A stretch of DNA of 64,000 nt from Leucoraja erinacea (lineage: Eukaryota), in assembly GCF_028641065.1 (NCBI RefSeq), contig NC_073406.1, positions 5,456,001-5,520,000 of the forward strand, in the 5' to 3' direction. Shown here piece after piece: positions 334 to 44,969 of this stretch. The stretch's first letter is position 1. Every line of letters starts with the position of its first letter. The notes beneath the pieces are model-generated. The model was given only the letters and a program-made list of their open reading frames with translations, made no database searches and was not told the origin of the DNA. The position numbers and the translations under genes are program-made.

Positions 334-3300
334 CTTATGCTCATCATCAATTAGGAGCAGAACTTTAGCATAATCTTGGTCAACAATTGGAAGCAGCAAA
401 GACTGAAGAATAGGGCGGGTCAAAACTGGTGGATTGATTTGACTCCGTTTTCCGAAGATTGGATTGAAGACATGAAGAGAGCTCAGTCCGGTTTCCTGAT
501 TAAAGAGTGGGAAAAGAAAATGGGAAAAGGGATAACATTTGAATCAATCTTAATACGGAATATGTAATGTTTTAAATAAAATCCTGTGAACAAAATTAAG
601 AACAGCGTAAATAGTAGTGACTGGTTCAGGAACGTAATTTAGACAAATGCAAAAGTGGCTATTTACGCCACATTTTACACAAGTATTACTGGCTGTCTGC
701 AAAGCAGTCTGAACATTTCGACAAGGTGAAGGGGTTATCAGATTCAGTCATTTCCTTGTTTCTGCCAAATATAAACCCATACTATCCTTGTAACCATTAC
801 TGACAAAGCAGTTCATAAGTGATAGGAGCAGAATGAGGCCATTCAGCCCATTCTGCCATGCAATCATGGCTGATCTATTTCTCTCTCTCAACCCCATTCT
901 CCTGCCTTATCCCCCAAACCCCTGACACCCGTACTAATCAAAGTTGTGATCATTTCCACATTACACCCATATTCCCCTTCCTTCTCCCAAACCACTTCTT
1001 TGAGTAGATGTTTCAGACAAAAATATTTCAGAGGCTTACTACCATATGTTTAAATTCAAACTTATCTAGCCATTGGCCCATAATACTTTACATATTTTCT
1101 GAGCTATTATATTGTTTTTACCATCTGCGTTCATTTTTTCCTCCTCTTTCAACCCCCTGCATATCCTTCACTTCACGTTTCCTCTGGACCAAGGATCTAG
1201 ATGTGAACATCACCCACGGACAATGAACTTAACCTTCCACTTTCAGATCTGGCTGAACCCCAAGGTATTCATGGGCCCATTTCCAAAACTAATCACTCTT
1301 CAGAGAACAAAGAATACACTTCTTCACCACAACACATCCTCCTCTGCCTTCTCCATCCTCTCTTCCAAAGATGAAGGAGCTAAAGAACAATGTATAATGA
1401 ATGTTTTCATGTGTTGACTGACTCCATGTGCCTGTGATACTGCCACAGGCAAGATTTTAATTATACCTTTGCCTCCTTTGCCTCAACGTACTTGCACACG
1501 TGACAATAAATGTGCCTTGATGCCACAAGATTTGGTGCCATCCCTTTCACTTCAGCTCCCTTTGCCAATTTACTTTTTCTTTAGTCCAACAGGCCAGGTT
1601 TTCCTGGCTCTGCATGACATTTTGGACTGTATTTTAGCTCTTTTACCCAGTAGGCCCATCAACGGCATTTTAAACCAACCAAATTACTTATCACATAACA
1701 TTTCTTTCATTTGCTGACATTTTAGATTTTCTCGGAACTCTCCTCAAATCCTTGTCAAATCTTGCAACCACTCTTCCAAAAAAAAACTATGCTAGATCCA
1801 TCTATCCTACATCTCCAACATTTGGATGGCTATTTGAATATTGATTCAGAGTCCCTTGCTTAGATGCACAGAGTCTCTTGCCCTGCGTAGGTGAATCGAG
1901 GACCAGAGGACATAGGTTTAAGGTGAAGCGGAAAAAATTTAATAGGAATCTGAGGGGTGATTTTTTCACACAAAGGGTGGTTGGTGTATGGAACAAGCTG
2001 CCAGAGGCGGTAGTTGAGGCAGGGACTATCCCAACATTTAAGAATCAGTTAGACAGGTACATGGATAAGACAGGGCTGGAAGGATATGGACCAAACGTGC
2101 AGGCAGGTGAGACTAATGTAGCTGGGTGTGGGCAAGTTGGGCCGAAGGGCCCGTTTCCACTGTATCACTGTATAACTCTATGAATGACCAAGGCATAGAG
2201 GGGTATGCAATTAATGCAGGCAAGCAGAATTAGGATAGATAGGCATGATAGCCGGCATAGACACAGTTGGTCAAAGATCCTAGAATACAGAACATAGAAC
2301 AGCACAGCGCAGGAACAGGCCCTTCAGCCTACACTGTCAGTACACAACATGATGCCAAATTAAACTAATCTACTCTCCCTCCATATGATCCACATCTATC
2401 CATTCCCCACATATCCATGTGCTTCTTTAAAAGCCTGCTAAATGCCCCAATCATGTCTGCCTCTACCACCACCCATGGCAGAGTATTTCCCCTCAAAGAG
2501 CAAAATCCCGTACCAAGTCAAATAATAAATTCTGTAAACACTCTCATTGCCTAAACTGAGACACTGCAAAGTGGGCACACAAGACATGAAACCATTGAAC
2601 TTGAATAATGATTAAAACTTACTCAGTGAAAATGCTCCACTAATGTTGGAGGACACAGCTTATATTCTCACCTTGTCCTTAATGATTAGGGTGCATTGTG
2701 GTGGGTGAGGGAAATGAGCTGTCGTTCGCTGCACTGCCAGTTTGAAAGAGGAGCCTGGTTTCACATTCTCTAAATATTGCTTCCACAAAATGGTTCCCGT
2801 GCTGCTGTCAATTCCAAAGAGCTGAAATTTTTTTTTAAAAGGATGTCAGAAAAAACCCATTCAATTCAGCATGTAAAATGACAATGAAGACAACATCTAA
2901 ATGTCTGGAAACATTTATACTGCCCATAAATACTATGGGCAGCACATAGTCGCAGTTGGTAGAGCTGTTTTCTCATAGCACCAGTGACCCAGGTTCGATC
3001 CTAACCTTGGGTGTTGTCCGAGTAGAATTTGCACATTCCACCTGTGACCACAAAGGTTCATTTGGATGTTCAGGTTTCCTCCCAACATCCCAAAGACATG
3101 TGGGTTGATAGGTCGCTGTTAATTGCCCCGAGTGTGCAGGAATCTAGGGTGGACTCGAAACTGGGATCACTTTGAAATAATGTTAATGGGTGATCAATGA
3201 TCAGCTTGGACTTGTGAATTAAATGAATCCATTTCCAAAGCCAACCACTGGTGTCAAAAACTTAAATCAAAGCATTTCTTCTATTAACAGGCACTTGATA

Positions 3301-21400: not shown

Positions 21401-23837
21401 TCCCACTGACCAGCGATCCCCACACATTAACCCTGGGGACAATTTACACTTATACCAAGCCAATTAATGTACAAACCTGAGAGATACAAAAAGCTGGAGT
21501 AACTCAGCGGGACATTATGTATTTGGATTGTGGGAGGAAACCAAAGTTCTCGGAGAAAACCCACGCGGTCACGGGGATAATGTACAAACTCTGTATAGAC
21601 AGTGCCAGTAGTTGGGATCGAACCCGAATCTCTGGCGCTGTAAGGCAGCAAGTCTACCTCTGCACCTCTGTAATCTATGTTTCTATAAGCTCTCTTTTAT
21701 GCCCCTATGTAAAAGATTTCAAGATATTTTCTGTTGTACTTGTGCAGGTTCTTCTTGGGTAAAAATAAAGTGATGGTGGTGGCTCTGGGAAAAGGATCAG
21801 CAGATGAATATAAGGATGGTTTACACAAGGTGAGCTCTTGGCAACTGCCCGTGTACTGAATTGTTCAATGTATTTTGGCAGTACAATGGGTAAAGCTTTG
21901 AGGTTGATGGGGTTTATTTTTGTCATTTGTCACCCTAAAACTTTGCCTTTGTTTCTCTATGACCTGTTGTATGTTTGGAGCAGCGTTTCTCAAACTTTTT
22001 ACCCTTGCGGAACCCTTGAAATAATTTTGATGTCTCGGGGAAACCCCAACATAAAAATTATTATCTATCTTTATTAATCTCTTTCTCTTTCATAGTTCAT
22101 AAGGCAAACATAATATCTTTTTCTGATAACTGGTTTAAGCAAAAAATAACTTGCATTTTTCTCAAGCTTATTGACAATGGGGAAAAAATAAAATCATACT
22201 GCTTGTTCAAAACTGAAGCTAATAAAGGCAAACAGAAGAACTAACCTTGGACGAGAGAGGGAGAGAGAAAACAAAACACAAACTTTTTATAAACTAACAA
22301 AAGCATACATAAATAAACTTGATCAACTAACAAAAATAAACAAACATACTTAAATAAATGTTTTAAATTCATATTATGGGTAAAAATTACTAAATAACGT
22401 GGGCGAATGAGGGACTGTGCCTGCACGCCACAGACAGGACTAATGGAGACCATGCTTGCGCCTGTACTTGAGTGAGTCACTTGATAATACACAAATCCGT
22501 CACGTACAGCCCCTGACCACTAATGGCCGTTTCACACTGGCGCCGTATAGACATTGCAAATTATGCCGTACGTGTATAATAAAATTACAAATATGAAATT
22601 AAACACAAAAATGACTCAAAGATGCATTTACATATGATTAAAGGTAGACAAAATGCCGGAGTAACGCAGCGAGCGAGGCAGCATCTATGAGTAGGAATGG
22701 GCGACGTTTCGGGTCGAGACCGTTCTGCAGACTGATGTCGGGAGGGGGTGGCAAAAAAATAATATTTCTCTCGGAGCACCTAGCGACCTCTCGCGGAACC
22801 CTAGCGTTCCGGGGAACCCTGGTTGAGAAACGTTGGTTTGGAGCATCAGCAATATTTGACATTGTTTCAAAAATGATCTTCCCTTTGTAGGTCAGTGCAC
22901 AGCTAGAAGGTGAAGTTGGTCTCCTGTTCACTGATCGCACAAAGGCAGAGGTGATTGAGTAAGTTTCTTGATTTTCTTACTTTCTTTGACATACAATGTG
23001 CTTGTGTTCTTTTATCATGCCTCTGCCAACGCGCTTTCCACATCTTGATCGACAGGTGGTTTGCTCAGTACTCGGAATCTGATTTTGCACGGTCTGGGAA
23101 CAAAGCTACGATGGCCATTACACTTGACGCTGGGCCACTACCACAATTCACTCACTCCATGGAGCCACAATTACGGAAACTTGGTTTACCGACCACGCTG
23201 AAGAAAGGTGCAGAAATGATAACAATTGCCCCTTTGCCAAGTATTTGATGAAGTTGATTATTTGATTAAAGATGTCAATTCATGTGATTGTCTTCTAGGT
23301 GTCGTGACATTGTTGAGTGATTATGACGTATGTAAAGAAGGTGCCTCACTGACACCCGAGCAAACACGCCTACTGGTTAGTACTATTATTTCAAATTTTG
23401 GCTTTTAATTTGTGGAATTACCACACCAGAAGGCTGAAAACCATGAATGAGGTGAACCCGAGGGATTTTTAATTTAGTTTTTAGTTTAATTGAGGGTGGG
23501 GTCTTTCACAAATCTGTCTACAATAATCTCATTCGGTTATAGTATTCACCAAAACACCAGCACTTCTGCACCCACCCATTAAGATAACACACCAATATGT
23601 AGAAAAATGTGTCTTCCAAGTACAGAACATTTCTAAATGTTGAGCAACATTTGAGCAACCAAACACTAAATAATACTGGAATTAGGAAGTTTAAGACTTT
23701 TGTACTATTTGGTTGTCTTCTAGAAACTCCTTGGTATTGAGATGGCCACATTCAAAGTGACAATAAACTGCCTGTGGAATTCCAAGACTGGTGAATTTGA
23801 ACAACTTGCCGTGAGTGATAATGGAAAAAGCAAATAA
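18452..23837 (+). CDS. MRTO4: mRNA turnover protein 4 homolog (ribosome maturation factor), complete, 8 exons
   Basis: Exons 18452-18479, 19568-19626, 20241-20344, 21748-21829, 22891-22958, 23056-23207, 23299-23375, 23724-23837 (TAA). Translation [18 protein letters not shown]...[14 protein letters not shown]...[11 protein letters not shown]...[14 protein letters not shown]...[21 protein letters not shown] matches MRTO4. It is head-to-head with EMC1, as in mammals. Confidence 0.97.
18718..19180. mobile_element. Cluster of nested/inverted Penelope pseudo-LTR copies inside a V-SINE in MRTO4 intron 1
   Basis: Repeated gctggagaaactcagcgggtgcagcagcatctatggagcgaaggaaat and its reverse complement. 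The SINE head is at ~18553-18720 and the SINE tail resumes at ~19010. Confidence 0.75.
21981..22835. mobile_element. Non-autonomous hAT (Charlie-like) DNA transposon in MRTO4 intron 4
   Basis: TIRs CAGCGTTTCTCAA ... TTGAGAAACGTTG, with a perfect 8-bp TSD GTTTGGAG at 21973-21980 and 22836-22843. Confidence 0.9.
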
Positions 23838-25981
23838 GTGGCAGAGATGGATGACTAGCAGGGAATTCAAAGGTTTTGTCCTATGCTTGACCTGTTAAAG
23901 TGACTGAACAATGCTATACACGAGAGAAGAATTTGTGGAAACCAACATAATTGCAACTTTTCTAATAAAAATGTTGAAACATAACAGACTTTTGGTTGAA
24001 TCTCACCAAGTGAAGCAATAATGGTGAATTGACTTTTGTACTGGCATCTGGGTAATTTAACAATGAAACATGTCATTGATTATATAAAGATAATCTCTTC
24101 AATGCATTTGAGGATTTTGCACCCAATGGATGCTTCTGAAATATAGTCAGTTGTAAGAAGCAACTAATGTGGACAACAATATACTATGGTCAGAAAGCAA
24201 AATGGGAAGACTTGTCCTTGAGTGATCTATCAATGTCCTTGTAATAATGAGCCAGATAGGACCTCCAAAGGTACAATGTTCCATCTATAACAATTGAGTT
24301 CCACTTTTCAACAAAATGCCAGTCACATTTGTGCTCCAATCCTGAATGTGTGCTATATATGAATGAGTCATAACAGCCTTAATATCAATTTTCAACTATG
24401 TACGTATGACCAATCACTATCATTAGAAGTTTTTAAATCCACATGCAATGCCAGGTAGCATTTGTACACTTTACTCCACAACTGAAGGGGTTATAGTGAT
24501 ACTGTACATTCAGGAAAGCAGGTGCACAGTTGACCTGTGTAAGGATTCACAGTGGCAGTGATAAACGTGCCATCTCACAGTCAGTGTCCAGGGTTAAATC
24601 CTGACCTTGTGTTGTGTCTACAGAGTTTGTACGTTCTCCCTTTGACAATGCCCGTTTTCTCCAGGTGCCCCGGTTTACTCCCACACTCCAAAGACATGCA
24701 GTTTTGTAGGTTAATTGGCTTCTGGAAATTATCTCTAGTGTGTAGGAGTGAAATAGTGTACCAGTGATCGTTGGTTGGCGTGAGCCAAAGGGCCTGTTTC
24801 CAAGCTATATCTGTAAAGTCTAAATCTCAAAGGGGTGAACTATAGATTTGAACAAACTGCGCAAAATAATATCACTACTTTCTGTGTATTGATCCGGTTT
24901 GAGTGAATCATCCTAGTAGGAATGAGAAAACAACTGATATCAAATGCAAAAAGGAATCAATTGTTTTTATTCAAGCAAACAAAGCAAATATAATGTGTTG
25001 CCAACAAGGCTGGGATTCTACGTGATTTTAGATTACAGATCCCATCCAGCCAATCCTTATTCTGTCATTTTTCAAAGCAGCTCAGCAACATCCAAGGGTC
25101 AAGACACTTGAACATAACCCACTGCTATCAGGCTCCTTAAACTACACTCAGCTCATGGAATGTATTCCCTTTACCAGGTTATACTTGACTTTTTTAATTC
25201 CTATTTCAATTCGTGGTCCATGTTAACTGACATGGCATCCACCTGCCATGTCTCAACATTCGCTCAGTCAACTGAGCCCTTGGCTGGAGGTGGAGCATGT
25301 GACCTGACCCACCTCAGCTTGATTGATGGTGAATTTTCCTTTGGCAATGATTCTCAACTATCCCCATTTTAGGGGCAAGAGTTCAAACCAAGGCAAAAAC
25401 TATTGGTGAGAAAATTACAATTTCCAAGCTGCCAGCTGGGAACTGAAATGTCACAAAAACTATTAAGGTCACTGTCTTAATTTAAATTGCCCCAGAAATC
25501 TGGTAAACGAAGATATGAGCATATAATGTGTACAACATCTCTTCCCACTCACCACCCCAATCCACGTTGATCTAGATTGAACCAGAGACCCCATTGTTTT
25601 CCGGTGTCTCCCTCAACCAAAGACATCTTGTTACTCGGGAATTGCAGTGTGCTGACAGGCTTGGCTGGGCTGGATTACTGATCAACAGAATCGCCTGGCA
25701 ATGCAAAGGCTGGGCAGCTCCATCTCCCAGCACTAAGGGGCATCATCAGTGAGTGGAAGGTGGCTGGCTCAGTAAATGGCAGGCTACTCCACTGATCCAG
25801 CCACCTTCCAAATTAAAACAAATGTAAGTACTCCTGTAGGTAGACACAAATTGCTGGAGTAACTCAGAGGGTGAGGCAGCAGCTATGGAGAGAAGGAATG
25901 GGTGACATTTCGGGTTGAGACGCTTCTTCAGACTGATGTCGGGGGTGGGGAGGGGGAAAGATAGAAAGTAGGCATAAATAT

Positions 25982-26096
25982 GTAGTGCAGTCTCACTACC
26001 TTACTTATGAAGCAAGAAAACTATAGAGCACAAATCAAAGCCACTGTTATATTGCAAAGACAATATAGATCCTACTTCTTGATGAAGAACCAGAGA
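25982..26096 (+). pseudogene. IQ-motif fragment, ASPM-like, fused in frame to the TLK2 fragment
   Basis: VVQSHY... followed by [20 protein letters not shown], matching the [IL]QxxYR IQ-repeat pattern typical of ASPM. The segment is short, so the source gene is tentative. Confidence 0.5.
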
Positions 26097-26626
26097 TGTG
26101 ACTTAAGAAGACAAATAGATGAACAACAGAAAAGGCTTAAACGATGCAAAGCATGGTTATATAAATGTATGACAATGAGTAAAAAGCTGCTAATAGAAAA
26201 GTCTAAACAAGAGCGCTTGTCGGTCGAGACAAAAATATGCAGGACCAATTGCGACTAGGACACTTCTCTACAGTCCAGCATGGAGCCTCCTTCACTGAGC
26301 AATGAACAGATGGTTATGCATCTCAGAATCTTGTTAAACAACAAGAGCGGATAAATACGCAGCGCGAGGAAATTGTGCGACAGAGGAAGCTGCTAGCAAA
26401 ACAAAAACCTGCAGCCATGTGTCAGATGCCACCTACAAATAATGAACAGAAACAGGAAAACAAAGCATATGAAGCAGAAAATGAAATGTGAACTTTAGCA
26501 GAATATCAGGAACAGGAAGAAATCTTCAAATTAAGATAAGGACATTTAAAAAGGGAAGAGGCAGAGATACGGGCAGAGCTAGAGCGATTAGAAAGAGTTT
26601 GCAATTTACACATAAGGGAACGGAAA
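26097..26626 (+). pseudogene. TLK2: Processed (intronless) fragment of tousled-like kinase 2, coiled-coil region
   Basis: Translates to [135 protein letters not shown]. It has one frameshift (~26222), three stops and no introns. Confidence 0.92.
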
Positions 26627-26898
26627 ATTATAACACATAAAGCAAGGGGTAATGTATTTGGTTTAAGGAAGATGGGTGGAACGAAAAAATTATGTGCTAA
26701 GTTTAGGTATGATTATTACAGCTATGAGGATGTATTGTAAGATTACTTCAATAATACAATTTTGCAACAGTGTATTAATCAATTATATTTCAGGTAAAGA
26801 GTATATACCGTGAAGGTGAAATTGAGCTACCTGCCACCAAGTTAAAAGGGGAGGAGTGCTATGTATGAAATAGAAATTGTGTTACCTGCCTCCAAGTT

Positions 26899-27067
26899 AA
26901 AGGGGGTGGAGTGTTATGTGTGAAATATAATTAACATATTTGATGTCTTGCATAATGATACGCATGCGCAGGAGACTCTAGGTGGCGTTCAGAATAAAGA
27001 AGCTTGTTAGTTAACTACCATGTCCGAGTTTTATTTAAAGTCTGTTACCAGCACCAAATACACAACA
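26899..27067 (+). mobile_element. Polypurine tract plus short (~156 bp) 3' LTR of a Gypsy-like/non-autonomous LTR element
   Basis: PPT aaagggggtggag (26899-26911) is followed immediately by TGTTATGTG (26912), AATAAA (26993-26998) and CACAACA (ends 27067). The termini are TG...CA with an imperfect inverted repeat. Penelope sequence resumes right after. Confidence 0.7.
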
Positions 27068-28263
27068 AGGGGATAGAATCTTGACAGGAGGTAGGGTGGG
27101 AAGAAGTGTAGTCAAGATACCTATGGGAGTCAGTAGGTTTGTAGTTGATGTCGGTCAATAGTCTGCTACCTGCTTAGGAGACGGTGAGATCTAGAAACGG
27201 TAGGGAGATGTCGGAAATGGTCCAGGTGAATTTGAGTGCCGGGTGGAAATTAGTGGCAAAGTGGATGATCAGTCAGATTATGGGTCTCGACCCGAAATGT
27301 CACCCATTCCTTCACTCCATAGATGCTGCCTCACCCGCTGAGTTTTCCAGCTTTTTGTGTACCTTTGATTTTTCCAGCATCTGCAGTTCTTTCGTAAACA
27401 AGTGGATGAAGTCAGTGAGTTCTGCATGGGTGCAGAGGTAGCACCAATGCAGTCGTCAATGGAGCGGAGGTAGAGTTTGGGGATAGGGCCAGTGTATGCC
27501 TGGAACAAGGATTGTTCGACGTACCCTACAAAGAGGCAGGCGTAGCTGGGCCCATGCGAGTGCCCATAGCTACGCCTTGGATTTGGAGGAAATGGGAAGA
27601 ATCAAAGAAGAAGTTGTTATGGGTAAGGACCTGCTCTGCTAGGTGGAGGATAGTATTGGTAGATGGAAATTGGCTGGTTCTGGGGTTGAGGACTTTATAA
27701 CAAAGGGCTTTAAGACCCGTCTGGTGGGGGATGGAGGTGTAGAGCGACTGGACATCCATAGTGAAGATGAGGGAGTGGGGGCCTGGAAAACAGAAGTCAT
27801 TGAGGAAACAAGGAGCGTGTGAGGTGTCTTGGACATAGGTGGGGTGGGGGGAGGGGGAATAGGTTGGAGTCGAGGTATGTGGAAATTAGTTTGGTGGGAC
27901 ATGAACAAGCAGTAACAACGGATCTGCCCGGACAGTTCTATTTGTGGATTTTGTGGAGAAAATAAAATCGAGCCATGCGGGGCTGGGGAACAATGAGATT
28001 GGAGGCTTTACCTGAGGCCAACCCCAGGGAGCCGGAAGTGATGAAATCAGTGATGGTGCTTGAGATTAAGGCCTGGTTCTTGTCTGTGGGGACAAGGTCC
28101 AAGGATAAGTAGAAGGAAATGTGTGAGAGTTGCATGGTCTCAGTCAGGAGGTCAGCGCTCCTCTTAGAGGTCAGAGTCCTCAGGCCTCAGTTCGGTAGAG
28201 GCCAGTTACTCCTGTAACTGTCAGCATTTAGATTGGAAGATTCAGCCCAATTTTTAGTCTGAT

Positions 28264-34896
<6,633 letters not shown>

Positions 34897-35125
34897 GAGG
34901 CGGTGAAGGAGCTCCGGCCGACGAGCAGCCCTGCTGTGTGACAGAGCGGCCGTCAACAAGGTGGAATGGGCGGGAACCGTCCCCCTGCCCGAGGGCGCTT
35001 GTCAATGCCGCGCCCATCGACATCCACAGGCCAAAGATTATAGCTCCTCTGGGATCTTTGATCCAGGCTGCTCAGTGCTGGAGTAACTCAGCGGGACAGG
35101 CAGCATCTCTGGAGAGAAGGAACGG

Positions 35126-35155: not shown

Positions 35156-35926
35156 TGCACCAACACTAGGCTGCCAGTAAAACAAAAGGGTGACCATTCC
35201 CAGAATTGAAAAAAAAATAGGATGAGGACTGCATGGAGATGCTCGAATCTTGAGCAAAATACGAAGTGCTGGAGGAACTCAGTGGGCCAGGCAGCATCTG
35301 TGGAGCGAATAGACAGTCAACGTTTCGTGCAGGAGACACAAGGAAATGCAGATGCTGGTTTACAAAAAAAGATACCAAGCGCCAGAATAACTTACCAGAC
35401 CAGGCAGCATCTCTGGAGAACATGGATCGGTGACATTTCCGGGTCTCGACCCGGAATATCACCCATCCATGTCCACCATAGATATTACCCGACTCTCAGT
35501 TACTACAGCACTTGGTCTTGTTTTGTATCAGGATGCTTTTTCAGACTGAAAAGTCAGCTGAACGTTCTCTCGCCTACTGGTTAGTACTTCTGTTTCAAAT
35601 TTTGGCTTTTAATTTGTGGAATTACCACACCAGAAGGCTGAAAACCATGAATGAGGTGAACCCGAGGGATTTTTAATTTAGTTTTTAGTTTAATTGAGGG
35701 TGGGGTCTTTCACAAATCTTTCAACAATAATCTAATTCGGCTATAGTATTCACCAAAACACCAACACTTCTGCACCTACCCATTAAGATAACACACCAAT
35801 ATGTAGAAAAAATTGTCTACCAAGTACGGCGCATTTCTGAATGTTGCGCATCCAAACATTAAATAATACTGAAATTAGGAAGTTTTCAAGACTTGTACTA
35901 TTTCAAATAGTATTTGGTTGTCTTCG

Positions 35927-36029
35927 AAAGTGACAATGAACTGTCTGTGGAACCATGATTGGTGAATTTGAACAACTTGCTGTGACTGATGATGGAAAAA
36001 GCAAAGAAGTGGCAGAGATGGATTACTAG
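35927..36029 (+). pseudogene. Duplicated remnant of MRTO4 last exon, splice acceptor deleted
   Basis: Paralogous to 23754-23858. Compare ggttgtcttc|gaaagtgaca here with ggttgtcttctagaaactcc...ttcaaagtgaca in the intact gene. About 32 bp including the AG are missing. Confidence 0.88.
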
Positions 36030-38184
36030 CAGGGAATTCAAGAGTTGCGTCCTATACGTGACCTGTTAAATTCTGTACATGAGAGTAGAATTTGTGGAAA
36101 CCAACTTCAGTGCAAATTTTCTGATAAAAATGTTGAAACATAACACATTTGGTTGAATCTCACCAAGTGAAGCAATAATGGTGAATTGACTTTTGTACTG
36201 GCATCTGGGTAATTTAACAATGGAACACATCAATGATTATAGAAAGATTATAGAAAGATAATCTCTTCAATGCATTTGAGGACTTTGCACCCAATGGATG
36301 CTTCTGAAATGTAATCACAGTTGAAAGCAGCAACTAACGTGGAGAACAATACAATATGGTCAGAAAGTCAAGTCAAGAGAGTTTATTGTCAGTTTAAAGC
36401 AAAATGTGGAGACTTGTCCTTGAGCGATCTTTCAATGTCATTGCAGCAATGAATCAGATAGGACCTCCAAAAGGTACATGTTCCAACTATAACGATTAAG
36501 TTCCATTTTGCAACCAAATGCCAGTCACAGTTGTGCTCCAATCCTGAATGTGTGCTATATATGAATGAGTCACAACGGCCTTATTATAAATCAATTTTTA
36601 CTATGCGTATGACCAGTCACTATCATTAGAAGTTTCTACCTGCAAATGCCAGGTAGCAATTGTACACTTTACTCCACAACTGAAGGGGTTATAGTGATAC
36701 TGTACAGTCACGAATATTAGGTGCACAGTTGACCTGTGTAAGGATTCACAGTGGTAGTGGTAAACGTGCCACCTCACAGAGTCAGTGTTCAGAGTTCAAT
36801 CCTGACCTTGTGTTGTCTCTACAGAGTTTGTACGTTCTCCCTTTGACAGTGCCTGTTTTCTCCAGGTGCCCCGGTTTACTCCCACACTCCAAAGACTTGC
36901 AAGTTTGTAGGTTAATTGGCTTCTGTAAATTATCTCTAGTGTGTACGATAGAACTAATGTACGGGTGATCGTTGGTTGGCGTGAGTGTTTCCACGCTATA
37001 TCTGTGAAGACTAAATCTCATAGGGGTGAACTATAGATTTGAACAAACTAAAATAATATCACCAATTTCTGTGCATTTATCCAGTTTGATTAAATCTTCT
37101 TGGTAGGAATGAGAAAACAGTGATATCAAATGCACAAAGTGAATCAATTGTTTTTATTCAAGCAAACAAAGCAAATATAATGTGTTGCCAACTATTTTGA
37201 TTCTACATGTATTAAATGTTCTATTCAGGGGTACACCATCAGCTATATGCTGTAGTAATTAAGTTGTTTCACTCGTGTTACTAGAATTTTTGTCCCAGGC
37301 TGGGATTCTACGTAATTTTAGATTACAGATCCCAGCCAGCCAATCCTTATTCTGTCATTTTTCAAAGCAGCTCAGCAACATCCAAGGGTCAAGACACTTG
37401 AACACAACCCACTGCTATCAGGCTCCTTAAACTACACTCAGCTCATGGAATGTATTCCCTTTACCATGTTATACTTGACTTTTTTAATTCCTATTTCAAT
37501 TAGTGGTCCATGTTAACTGACATGGCATCCACCTGCCATGTCTCAACATTCGCTCAGTCAACTGAGCCCTTGGCTGGAGGTGGAGTATGTGACCTGACCC
37601 ACCTCAGCTTGATTGATGGTGTATTTTCCTCTGGCAATGATTCTCAACTATCCCCATTTGGTGGCAAGAGTTCAGACCAAGGCAAAAACTATTGGTGAGA
37701 AAATTACAATTTCCAAGCTGTCAGCTGGGAACTGAAATGTCACTAAAAATATTAAGGTCACTGTCTTTATTTAAATTGCTTGCCTCAGAATTTTGGTAAA
37801 CTACGATATGAGCATATAAAGTTCACAATATCTCTTCCCACTCTCCACCCCAATCCACGTTGATCTTGATTGAACCAGAGACCCCATTGGTTTCCTGTGT
37901 CTCCCTCAACCAGAGGCATCTTGTTACTTGGGAGTTGCAGTGTGCTGACAAGGCTTGGCTGGGCTGGGCTGGGCTGTATTACTGATCATCAGAATCGCCT
38001 GGCAATGCAAAGGCTGGGCAGCTCCATCTCCCAGGACTAAGGGGAGTCATCAGTGAGTGGAAGGTGGCTGGTAAATGACAGGCCACGCCACTGATCCAGC
38101 CACCTTCCAAATGAAAACAATTGTAAGTACTCCTGTAACTGTCAGCATTTAGATTGGAAGATTAAGCCCAATTTTTCGACTGAT

Positions 38185-44359
<6,175 letters not shown>

Positions 44360-44969
44360 GGTGGAATGGGCGGGAACCGTCCCCCCGCGCTGACATTTAT
44401 CCAACCCCCGCTCTCGACGCAGTTGTCATCAAAGATCATAATCATAGAGCTCTATGATCTTTGCTTGTCATTGCCTCGTTCCTCTTACAGACATCCAGGC
44501 TGCCCAGTGCAAGCAATTCCTGCAATGTTTTTTTCAATGACATACACAAAATGCTGGAGTAACTCAGCGGGACAGGCAGCATCTCTGGAGAGAAGGAATG
44601 GGTGACGTTTCAGGTGGACACCCTTCTTCAGTGCACCTGCACCTGCAATACTAGGCTGTCACTGTCAGTAAGACAAAAGGGTGAACATTCCCAGAACAAA
44701 AACAATTGGATCGGGACCGCAGATGCTCGAATCTTGAGCAAAATACAAAGTGCTGGAGGAACTAAGTGGGTCAGGCAGCATCTGTGGAGTGAATGGATAG
44801 TCAACGATTCGTGCAGGAGACACAAGGAACTGCAGATGCTGGCTTACAGAAAAAGATACAAGCGCCAGAATAACTCACCAGACCAGGCAGCACCTCTGGA
44901 GAACATGGATTGGTGACATTTCCAGGTCCCGACCCAGAATATCTGAAGAAGGGTTTCAGCCCAGAATGT

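Follow-up and report, generated by a model that had tools for sequence, protein, structure and literature searches.

It is an open question whether transposons make use of the host-gene fragments that they carry or simply transport them, usually untestable because such elements have few copies. It is raised here by a chimeric cassette at positions 25982-27067 of a 64,000-nucleotide window (the whole stretch of DNA that was analysed; contig NC_073406.1, positions 5,456,001 to 5,520,000) from the skate Leucoraja erinacea, in which a piece of ASPM is joined to a spliced piece of TLK2 in front of a long terminal repeat (LTR). The cassette makes up the last 1.09 kb, at the 3' end, of a non-autonomous Ty3/Gypsy (Mag-like) element ~4 kb in length. 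One genome contains at least 175 dated copies together with both donor genes and the parent, so that changes shared between copies could be contrasted directly with changes private to single copies. The anatomy, copy number, spliced junctions, parent and in-frame fusion of the family were observed directly, as was, on shared branches, a frame-specific shortage of amino-acid changes, stops and frameshifts. We consider it probable that the family is a pol-replaced non-autonomous Gypsy element whose source copies were translated into a Gag-ASPM-TLK2 fusion and selected to keep it.

Structure and origin of the family

A pattern spanning a TLK2 exon junction matched the genome 175 times and a pattern spanning the ASPM/TLK2 junction 163 times, some copies having two; the reversed patterns, used as controls, gave no match. 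The matches are not due to chance, and the family comprises at least 175 copies, dispersed and sharing one IQ-TLK2 junction, as expected by the original prediction, which had been made from the window sequence alone. We examined 92 copies, chosen non-randomly among the best matches, a few of them for long open frames. Full copies are mostly ~3.6-4.7 kb long and contain, in this order, an LTR, a primer-binding site (PBS), a GC-rich repetitive leader, the gag N-terminus, a linker, ASPM, TLK2, a 3' untranslated region (UTR), a polypurine tract (PPT) and an LTR. Their ASPM piece measures ~1 kb and encodes 11 IQ motifs. The two flanking LTRs and the PBS that a mobilised family should possess were thus present in full copies: LTR pairs occurred in 43 of the 92 copies (87-100% identity, median 95%), and the PBS is complementary to a genomic tRNA-Ser(GCT). 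Target-site duplications (TSDs) at the 35 non-tandem pairs were exact and 5 bp long in 15 cases and had at most one mismatch in 23. Dispersed copies and paired LTRs rule out a poly(A)-type retrocopy or a single-copy pseudogene. At an assumed 1e-9 substitutions/site/year, the family would have been active over roughly the past 50-60 million years. The family was also present, with at least 88% likeness, in DNA runs under three organism labels, one of which may be the genome's own species. It leaves hundreds of TLK2 and ASPM look-alikes able to confuse skate annotation and read mapping.

Eight of the 43 paired copies (L027, L039, L040, L081, L095, L098, L108 and L118) carry a PPT before the 5' LTR, i.e. 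they represent tandem integration or tandem templates. Preliminary candidate totals of 768 and 1091 are not copy numbers. The 215 matches to a PBS pattern were likewise rejected as a count, since 16 of 20 sampled sites belonged to the LTR of a different element. These 16 sites lie in a young 1.3-kb unit (L131-L150, e.g. L145:11-1273, L148:145-1440 and L149), ~88-99% alike between copies, with inverted ends and 5-bp TSDs, which includes the Mag-like family's PPT repeats, LTR, PBS and leader. A BEL/Pao-type open reading frame (ORF) follows the unit in L149 and L146, with a DUF1759 domain in L149; the unit is therefore likely a BEL/Pao LTR that swallowed the LTR junction of another element.

Both donor genes named in the original prediction were recovered. 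The ASPM piece falls within the single large IQ exon of host ASPM (genome G000) and is therefore uninformative on intron loss. The TLK2 piece is 88-93% identical to five consecutive host TLK2 exons, which translate identically to a skate TLK2 record; its exon-exon junctions match the gene, and four GT-AG introns (3149, 1470, 1089 and 1287 bp) are absent from the cassette. TLK1 was rejected as donor (74-77% identity). The gag/ASPM junction shows microhomology at CCA(A/G)CAG (6 of 7 nt) and the ASPM/TLK2 junction at TGTG (4 nt), both in frame; the TLK2/3' UTR junction shows loose similarity, and the end of the cargo carries no poly(A). The large exon of host ASPM itself (G000:C10 ~56973837-56977124) is internally repetitive, with four units of ~657 bp, and its frame is interrupted. 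The interruption may be an assembly error, and errors of this kind may raise the number of private frameshifts counted in the copies.

The oldest cargo copies still encode zinc knuckles, and a search with these led to the parents. They carry a full gag with two CCHC motifs and a pol encoding protease, reverse transcriptase (RT), RNase H and integrase in that order (PR-RT-RH-IN), and have the same LTR, leader and 3' UTR as the cargo family. Parents L182 and L183 are 5.8-5.9 kb long with LTR pairs 87% and 99% alike, respectively; every parent examined was broken. The best PDB matches of the parent RT were Ty3 RT (E 4e-46). The cargo begins at the nucleocapsid (NC) end, at the 7-nt microhomology, and finishes near the parent pol stop codon. 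The cargo family is without pol and without the middle of gag, and later subfamilies have also lost NC. The paired LTRs, PBS, TSDs, replacement of pol by host cargo, and pol-bearing parents with the same LTR and 3' UTR establish the non-autonomous LTR element that had been proposed. Capture by template switching, also proposed, is supported by the microhomology junctions, the spliced exons and the parent; the switching itself we infer.

Other non-autonomous derivatives of the same parent (L195-L198) have a deletion from protease to the integrase end and no host cargo. Two copies considered as TLK2-only intermediates (L193 and L194) were rejected: by eye, their short stretch before TLK2 reads as the ASPM end in another frame, and they were therefore taken as recombinants with the parent. 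Among the features described for the Mag lineage of Ty3/Gypsy elements are two CCHC arrays (PMC2577118) and a PBS for tRNA-Ser or -Leu, a 5-bp TSD and a short LTR (PMC3286476). The family resembles these accounts in its short LTRs, tRNA-Ser PBS, 5-bp TSD, two CCHC motifs, 5' UTR repeats and the PR-RT-RH-IN order of its parent (PMC3286476, PMC2577118); it differs from Mag elements in that the cargo family has lost pol and the gag middle. We class it as Ty3/Gypsy and, by these described features, as Mag-like.

Reading frame, transcription and selection

The gag, ASPM and TLK2 pieces are joined in a single frame. Natural ORFs starting at the gag ATG reach 559 amino acids (aa) in copy L110, 484 aa in L089, where the frame runs into TLK2, and 469 and 402 aa in others. 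A secondary TLK2 piece was inserted later within ASPM and adds exactly 72 nt in 43 of the 65 copies measured; a still later duplication is a multiple of three in three of the six copies that show it. The in-frame gag-ASPM linkers span 129-528 nt and are stop-free in 21 of 29 cases; in L085, L100, L109 and L110 the linker contains an expanded 21-nt repeat encoding a seven-residue, QKDKGQV-like unit.

Some copies are transcribed in the source of the poly(A) run X12 (organism D, a different label from the genome). In a sample of about 6% of that run (7.3 million records), 346 reads fell on L110:4350-6400 and 394 on L089:1617-3852. The reads were strand-biased, being sense at the 3' end (e.g. 55.7 versus 0.04) and in gag (about 6-11 versus 0-3), with parts of ASPM mixed. 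They lie along gag, cargo and 3' UTR and are too short to show one full transcript. One sequence variant dominates, with an insertion common to 48 of 50 reads. The low-share runs X1-X3 were left out of the evidence. No annotated fusion protein of 307-979 aa was found among 7,515 candidates.

Selection on the cargo was analysed on a tree of 82 of the 92 copies, rooted on the host genes; ten copies with fewer than 800 aligned sites, including the window copy, were dropped. Host-CpG transitions and changes fixed in at least 90% of copies were left out. Internal (shared) changes, defined as those common to clades of four or more copies, were compared with changes at the tips (private). A frequency-based test was discarded as biased by recurrent transitions, and a tree-based test with mutation-type expectations was used instead. 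The tree is ladder-like, and LTR pairs are younger in deeper (derived) clades (rho 0.34, p=0.029).

Over ASPM and the first 290 nt of TLK2, the ratio of nonsynonymous to synonymous changes (N/S) was 1.58 on internal branches (123/78) versus 2.59 at the tips (1909/737; p=0.0015); the same comparison in the five other frames gave no difference (p=0.07-0.49). Conditioned on mutation type, the ratio was 0.57 for shared and 0.91 for private changes. Stops in ASPM accounted for 0 of 156 shared versus 90 of 2252 private changes (p=0.004), and the sole shared non-CpG stop allele lies at TLK2 codon 90, just ahead of the frameshift-tolerant distal region. Shared indels caused a frameshift in 10 of 10 cases in distal TLK2 versus one of three in the core: the distal TLK2 part decays freely. 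Missense changes in the IQ core made up 3 of 103 shared versus 181 of 1548 private changes (p=0.003), or 3 of 78 versus 184 of 1562 when each allele was counted once (p=0.028); over four clade cut-offs p ranged from 0.003 to 0.028. The selection signal persists for alleles not found in the oldest copies (p=0.019). Controls for re-capture of host mRNA hold, derived clades being without blocks that revert to the host state. The omega-like value is lowest in proximal TLK2 (0.43), where two in-frame duplications of the first ~17 codons have also occurred. The gag N-terminus contains no shared stops or frameshifts. The cargo data suggest that the cargo frame is under purifying selection on shared branches, with constraint at the amino-acid level on the captured IQ array.

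The window copy and its nested setting

The window copy is dead, its 5' 3.2 kb being deleted and its frame broken by one frameshift and three stops. It starts at a point equivalent to position 3180 of full copy L031 and retains only the PPT and 3' LTR of the element's cis signals. The IQ piece, TLK2, PPT and TG..CA LTR with AATAAA were all found where the original prediction had placed them (table); a Pfam search of the window IQ piece gave no match. The TLK2 part has a 1-nt deletion at ~26211, a 3-nt deletion at ~26454 and stops at 26303, 26489 and 26537. The original prediction correctly had the IQ fragment joined in frame to TLK2 and was right about the identity of TLK2. The three TLK2 motifs that it quoted lie in a different frame from the IQ piece, one with three stops, because the 1-nt deletion shifts the frame. 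Its ~270-bp AT-rich spacer exists as a stretch; it consists of the parent 3' UTR and a tandem duplication of 55 bp that includes a second PPT.

Features of the window copy and of the insertion that surrounds it, here taken as Penelope-like.
Feature	Position	Strand	Evidence or remark
Left 10-bp target duplication TACTCCTGTA of the Penelope-like insertion	25829..25838		repeated at 28207-28216; single copy at the empty site 38128-38137
Penelope-like terminal-repeat end	25839..25974		many look-alikes in window and loci
Deletion junction with ~6-nt filler	25975..25981		in intact Penelope-like copies L114 and L063 this interval measures 880-898 bp
3' end of ASPM piece, last IQ motif, captured large exon	25982..26103	+	91% to host ASPM G000:C10:56976870-56976993
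ASPM/TLK2 switch point	26097..26103	+	TGTG microhomology, in frame, Cys codon common to both; host and element sequences aligned
Five spliced TLK2 exons	26097..26637	+	coiled-coil region, skate TLK2 aa ~194-376, without kinase domain
3' UTR of parent Gypsy element	26638..26843	+	73-83% to pol-bearing parents and deletion derivatives; joined near parent pol stop codon
55-bp tandem duplication with two PPTs (26844-26856, 26899-26911)	26818..26927	+	same duplication in several other copies
PPT before 3' LTR	26899..26911	+	second PPT (26844-26856) from tandem duplication
3' LTR, 156 bp, TG..CA, AATAAA at 26993-26998	26912..27067	+	paired in full copies; 77-84% to parent LTRs L182, L183
Penelope-like remainder, RT fragments	27068..28206	-	80% to other copies; 3' LTR adjoins directly

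The copy sits within an insertion at 25839-28206, flanked by a 10-bp TSD, which we take to be Penelope-like from RT-like motifs judged by eye. Such elements typically have an RT, a GIY-YIG nuclease and hammerhead repeats; Pfam and Rfam scans of the insertion gave no match, and its nuclease region would fall in the deletion. At the junction the Penelope-like element lacks ~0.87 kb and the LTR element ~3.2 kb (5' LTR, PBS, leader, gag and most of ASPM). Since both stretches are gone together, a later deletion removed the 5' part; the missing 5' LTR of the original prediction was thus lost in a single event that also took part of the surrounding element.

The region also contains a ~10-kb local segmental duplication (window ~23367-34988 versus ~35571-44388, 84-93% identity), the second copy of which represents the empty Penelope-like site. 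Near the start of the duplicated segment, at 22955-23408 on the + strand, two ORF pieces resemble exons of a conserved host gene, with a likeness to the ribosome factor MRT4.

Explanations and known systems

In the mechanism that we favour, RT would have switched from the parent RNA at the gag end to ASPM mRNA, then to TLK2 mRNA and finally to the parent 3' UTR. The product, retaining LTRs, PBS and PPT, would have been mobilised in trans by the pol-bearing parent, as modelled in PMC5131818, via many successive source copies. The least certain step is that the Gag-N/linker/IQ-array protein would act mainly in cis, on its own RNA. Being translated almost as far as its 3' end, the RNA may escape nonsense-mediated decay, and the IQ rod may be soluble only with calmodulin bound, while Gag-N would co-assemble with helper particles. 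Copies losing the frame or IQ core residues would then spread less. More tentatively, Gag-ASPM(IQ)-TLK2(coiled-coil) might be a new selfish gene that binds calmodulin and aids its own RNA's packaging or its reaching of dividing germ cells, a proposal that we regard as possible and no stronger.

Several observations weigh against a selected fusion. In the gag N-terminus, missense changes are not constrained (ratios 1.10 and 1.29, p>=0.68, from only 31-40 internal changes), a poor fit with a structural Gag-N role. Constraint on the cargo is moderate (omega-like ~0.6); the unique ASPM half alone is not significant (N/S p=0.33), nor is the sequence outside the IQ core (p=0.16), and by a BLOSUM62 test shared missense changes are no milder (p=0.76). 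Mosaic copies recombine, so that branch events are not fully independent, and the p-values of the several selection tests are uncorrected. The gag-ASPM linker is in frame in only 29 of 60 copies; a 1-nt insertion at the linker/ASPM border is common to 15 copies, 6 of the 14 measurable being in frame overall; and in none of the sampled copies does an ORF run the full length of the TLK2 part. Finally, the RNA evidence comes from a single run with another organism label, and the fusion protein is a predicted one.

One rival explanation is passive cargo. On that account, capture and trans-mobilisation were the same, the cargo is spacer RNA with a frame that matters, if at all, for RNA stability, and recombination, mutation context or host mRNA re-capture produced the amino-acid signal as an artefact. 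The unconstrained gag, the weak sub-region signals, the mosaic copies and the tolerance of TLK2 stops and frameshifts from codon ~90 in the youngest clades fit it. However, the signal is confined to the host frame and persists after conditioning on mutation type, derived clades lack host-state reversion blocks and have the younger LTR pairs, and IQ core residues are spared; we consider passive cargo unlikely. Under host domestication, a single source locus or a handful of them would encode a Gag-IQ fusion of benefit to the fish and kept by host selection, with copies shed as a by-product; no cis action would be required. A long-lived source locus would be expected to give a ladder-like tree, and the single variant dominating the RNA reads agrees with it. 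Against it, at least two young clades that differ in their LTRs and linkers expanded at the same time, a fully open copy was found in none of the 92 examined (of at least 175), and the annotation search described above found no fusion protein; this makes it a distinctly improbable explanation.

Least plausible, in our judgement, is an anti-silencing effector, whose TLK2 coiled coil would pair with host TLK1/2, weaken TLK-ASF1-dependent silencing of repeats and help the family in trans. By the domain boundaries that we assume, the captured piece holds only the distal part of the TLK2 segment CC1. Such a trans effect would not favour the encoding copy, and the distal TLK2 part decays, whereas the low omega-like value of proximal TLK2 and its in-frame duplications speak in its favour. 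In published accounts CC1 is required for dimerisation of TLK2 (PMC6023931), and some endogenous retroviruses are de-repressed on TLK loss in human cells (PMC7408502). A pol-replaced Gypsy element whose source copies were selected to keep a translated fusion thus remains our preferred explanation.

Replication-defective acutely transforming retroviruses carry Gag-onc fusions, e.g. the gag-myb-ets of E26. Like these, the skate family has a helper-dependent genome with gag fused in frame to two host-gene pieces; unlike them, it is a non-infectious germline retrotransposon without env or kinase domain and with no sign of transformation. If the more tentative selfish-gene proposal is correct, the Gag-IQ-coiled-coil gene would correspond, among retrotransposons, to a Gag fusion with two oncogenes, and selection would have kept it over many copying rounds in skates.

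A second comparable system comprises the LTR-mediated retrocopies described from metazoans (Tan et al. 2016, PMC5131818). As in the cases described there, partial mRNAs stand in place of internal ORFs between LTRs, with microsimilarity at the switches and without poly(A), and two-gene chimeras, secondary retroposition and sense, often in-frame cargo occur. The cases consulted are young and include no family this large, and the supplementary tables of that paper could list higher-copy cases; here we find at least 175 copies in a subfamily ladder, cargo fused to gag and constraint measured on replicating branches. Maize Bs1, as presented in the same source (PMC5131818), is also an LTR element with pieces of several spliced host genes, uniform switch points and a chimeric protein. 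It differs in being a plant element of one to five copies with three donors, one out of frame, whereas the skate family is a vertebrate one with two donors in frame and >30x the copies. In the literature searched (Repbase, subscription papers and supplements being outside its scope), neither an element carrying ASPM/TLK2 nor any gene-carrying LTR element of cartilaginous fish was reported, nor was a constrained Gag-cargo fusion at this copy number. To that extent the family is undescribed, as the original prediction surmised; the mechanism itself had already been published (Tan et al. 2016; maize Bs1). Gene capture by LTR elements is known, and what is new is the scale of the family and the evidence of a Gag-host-host fusion kept by selection in a replicating lineage.
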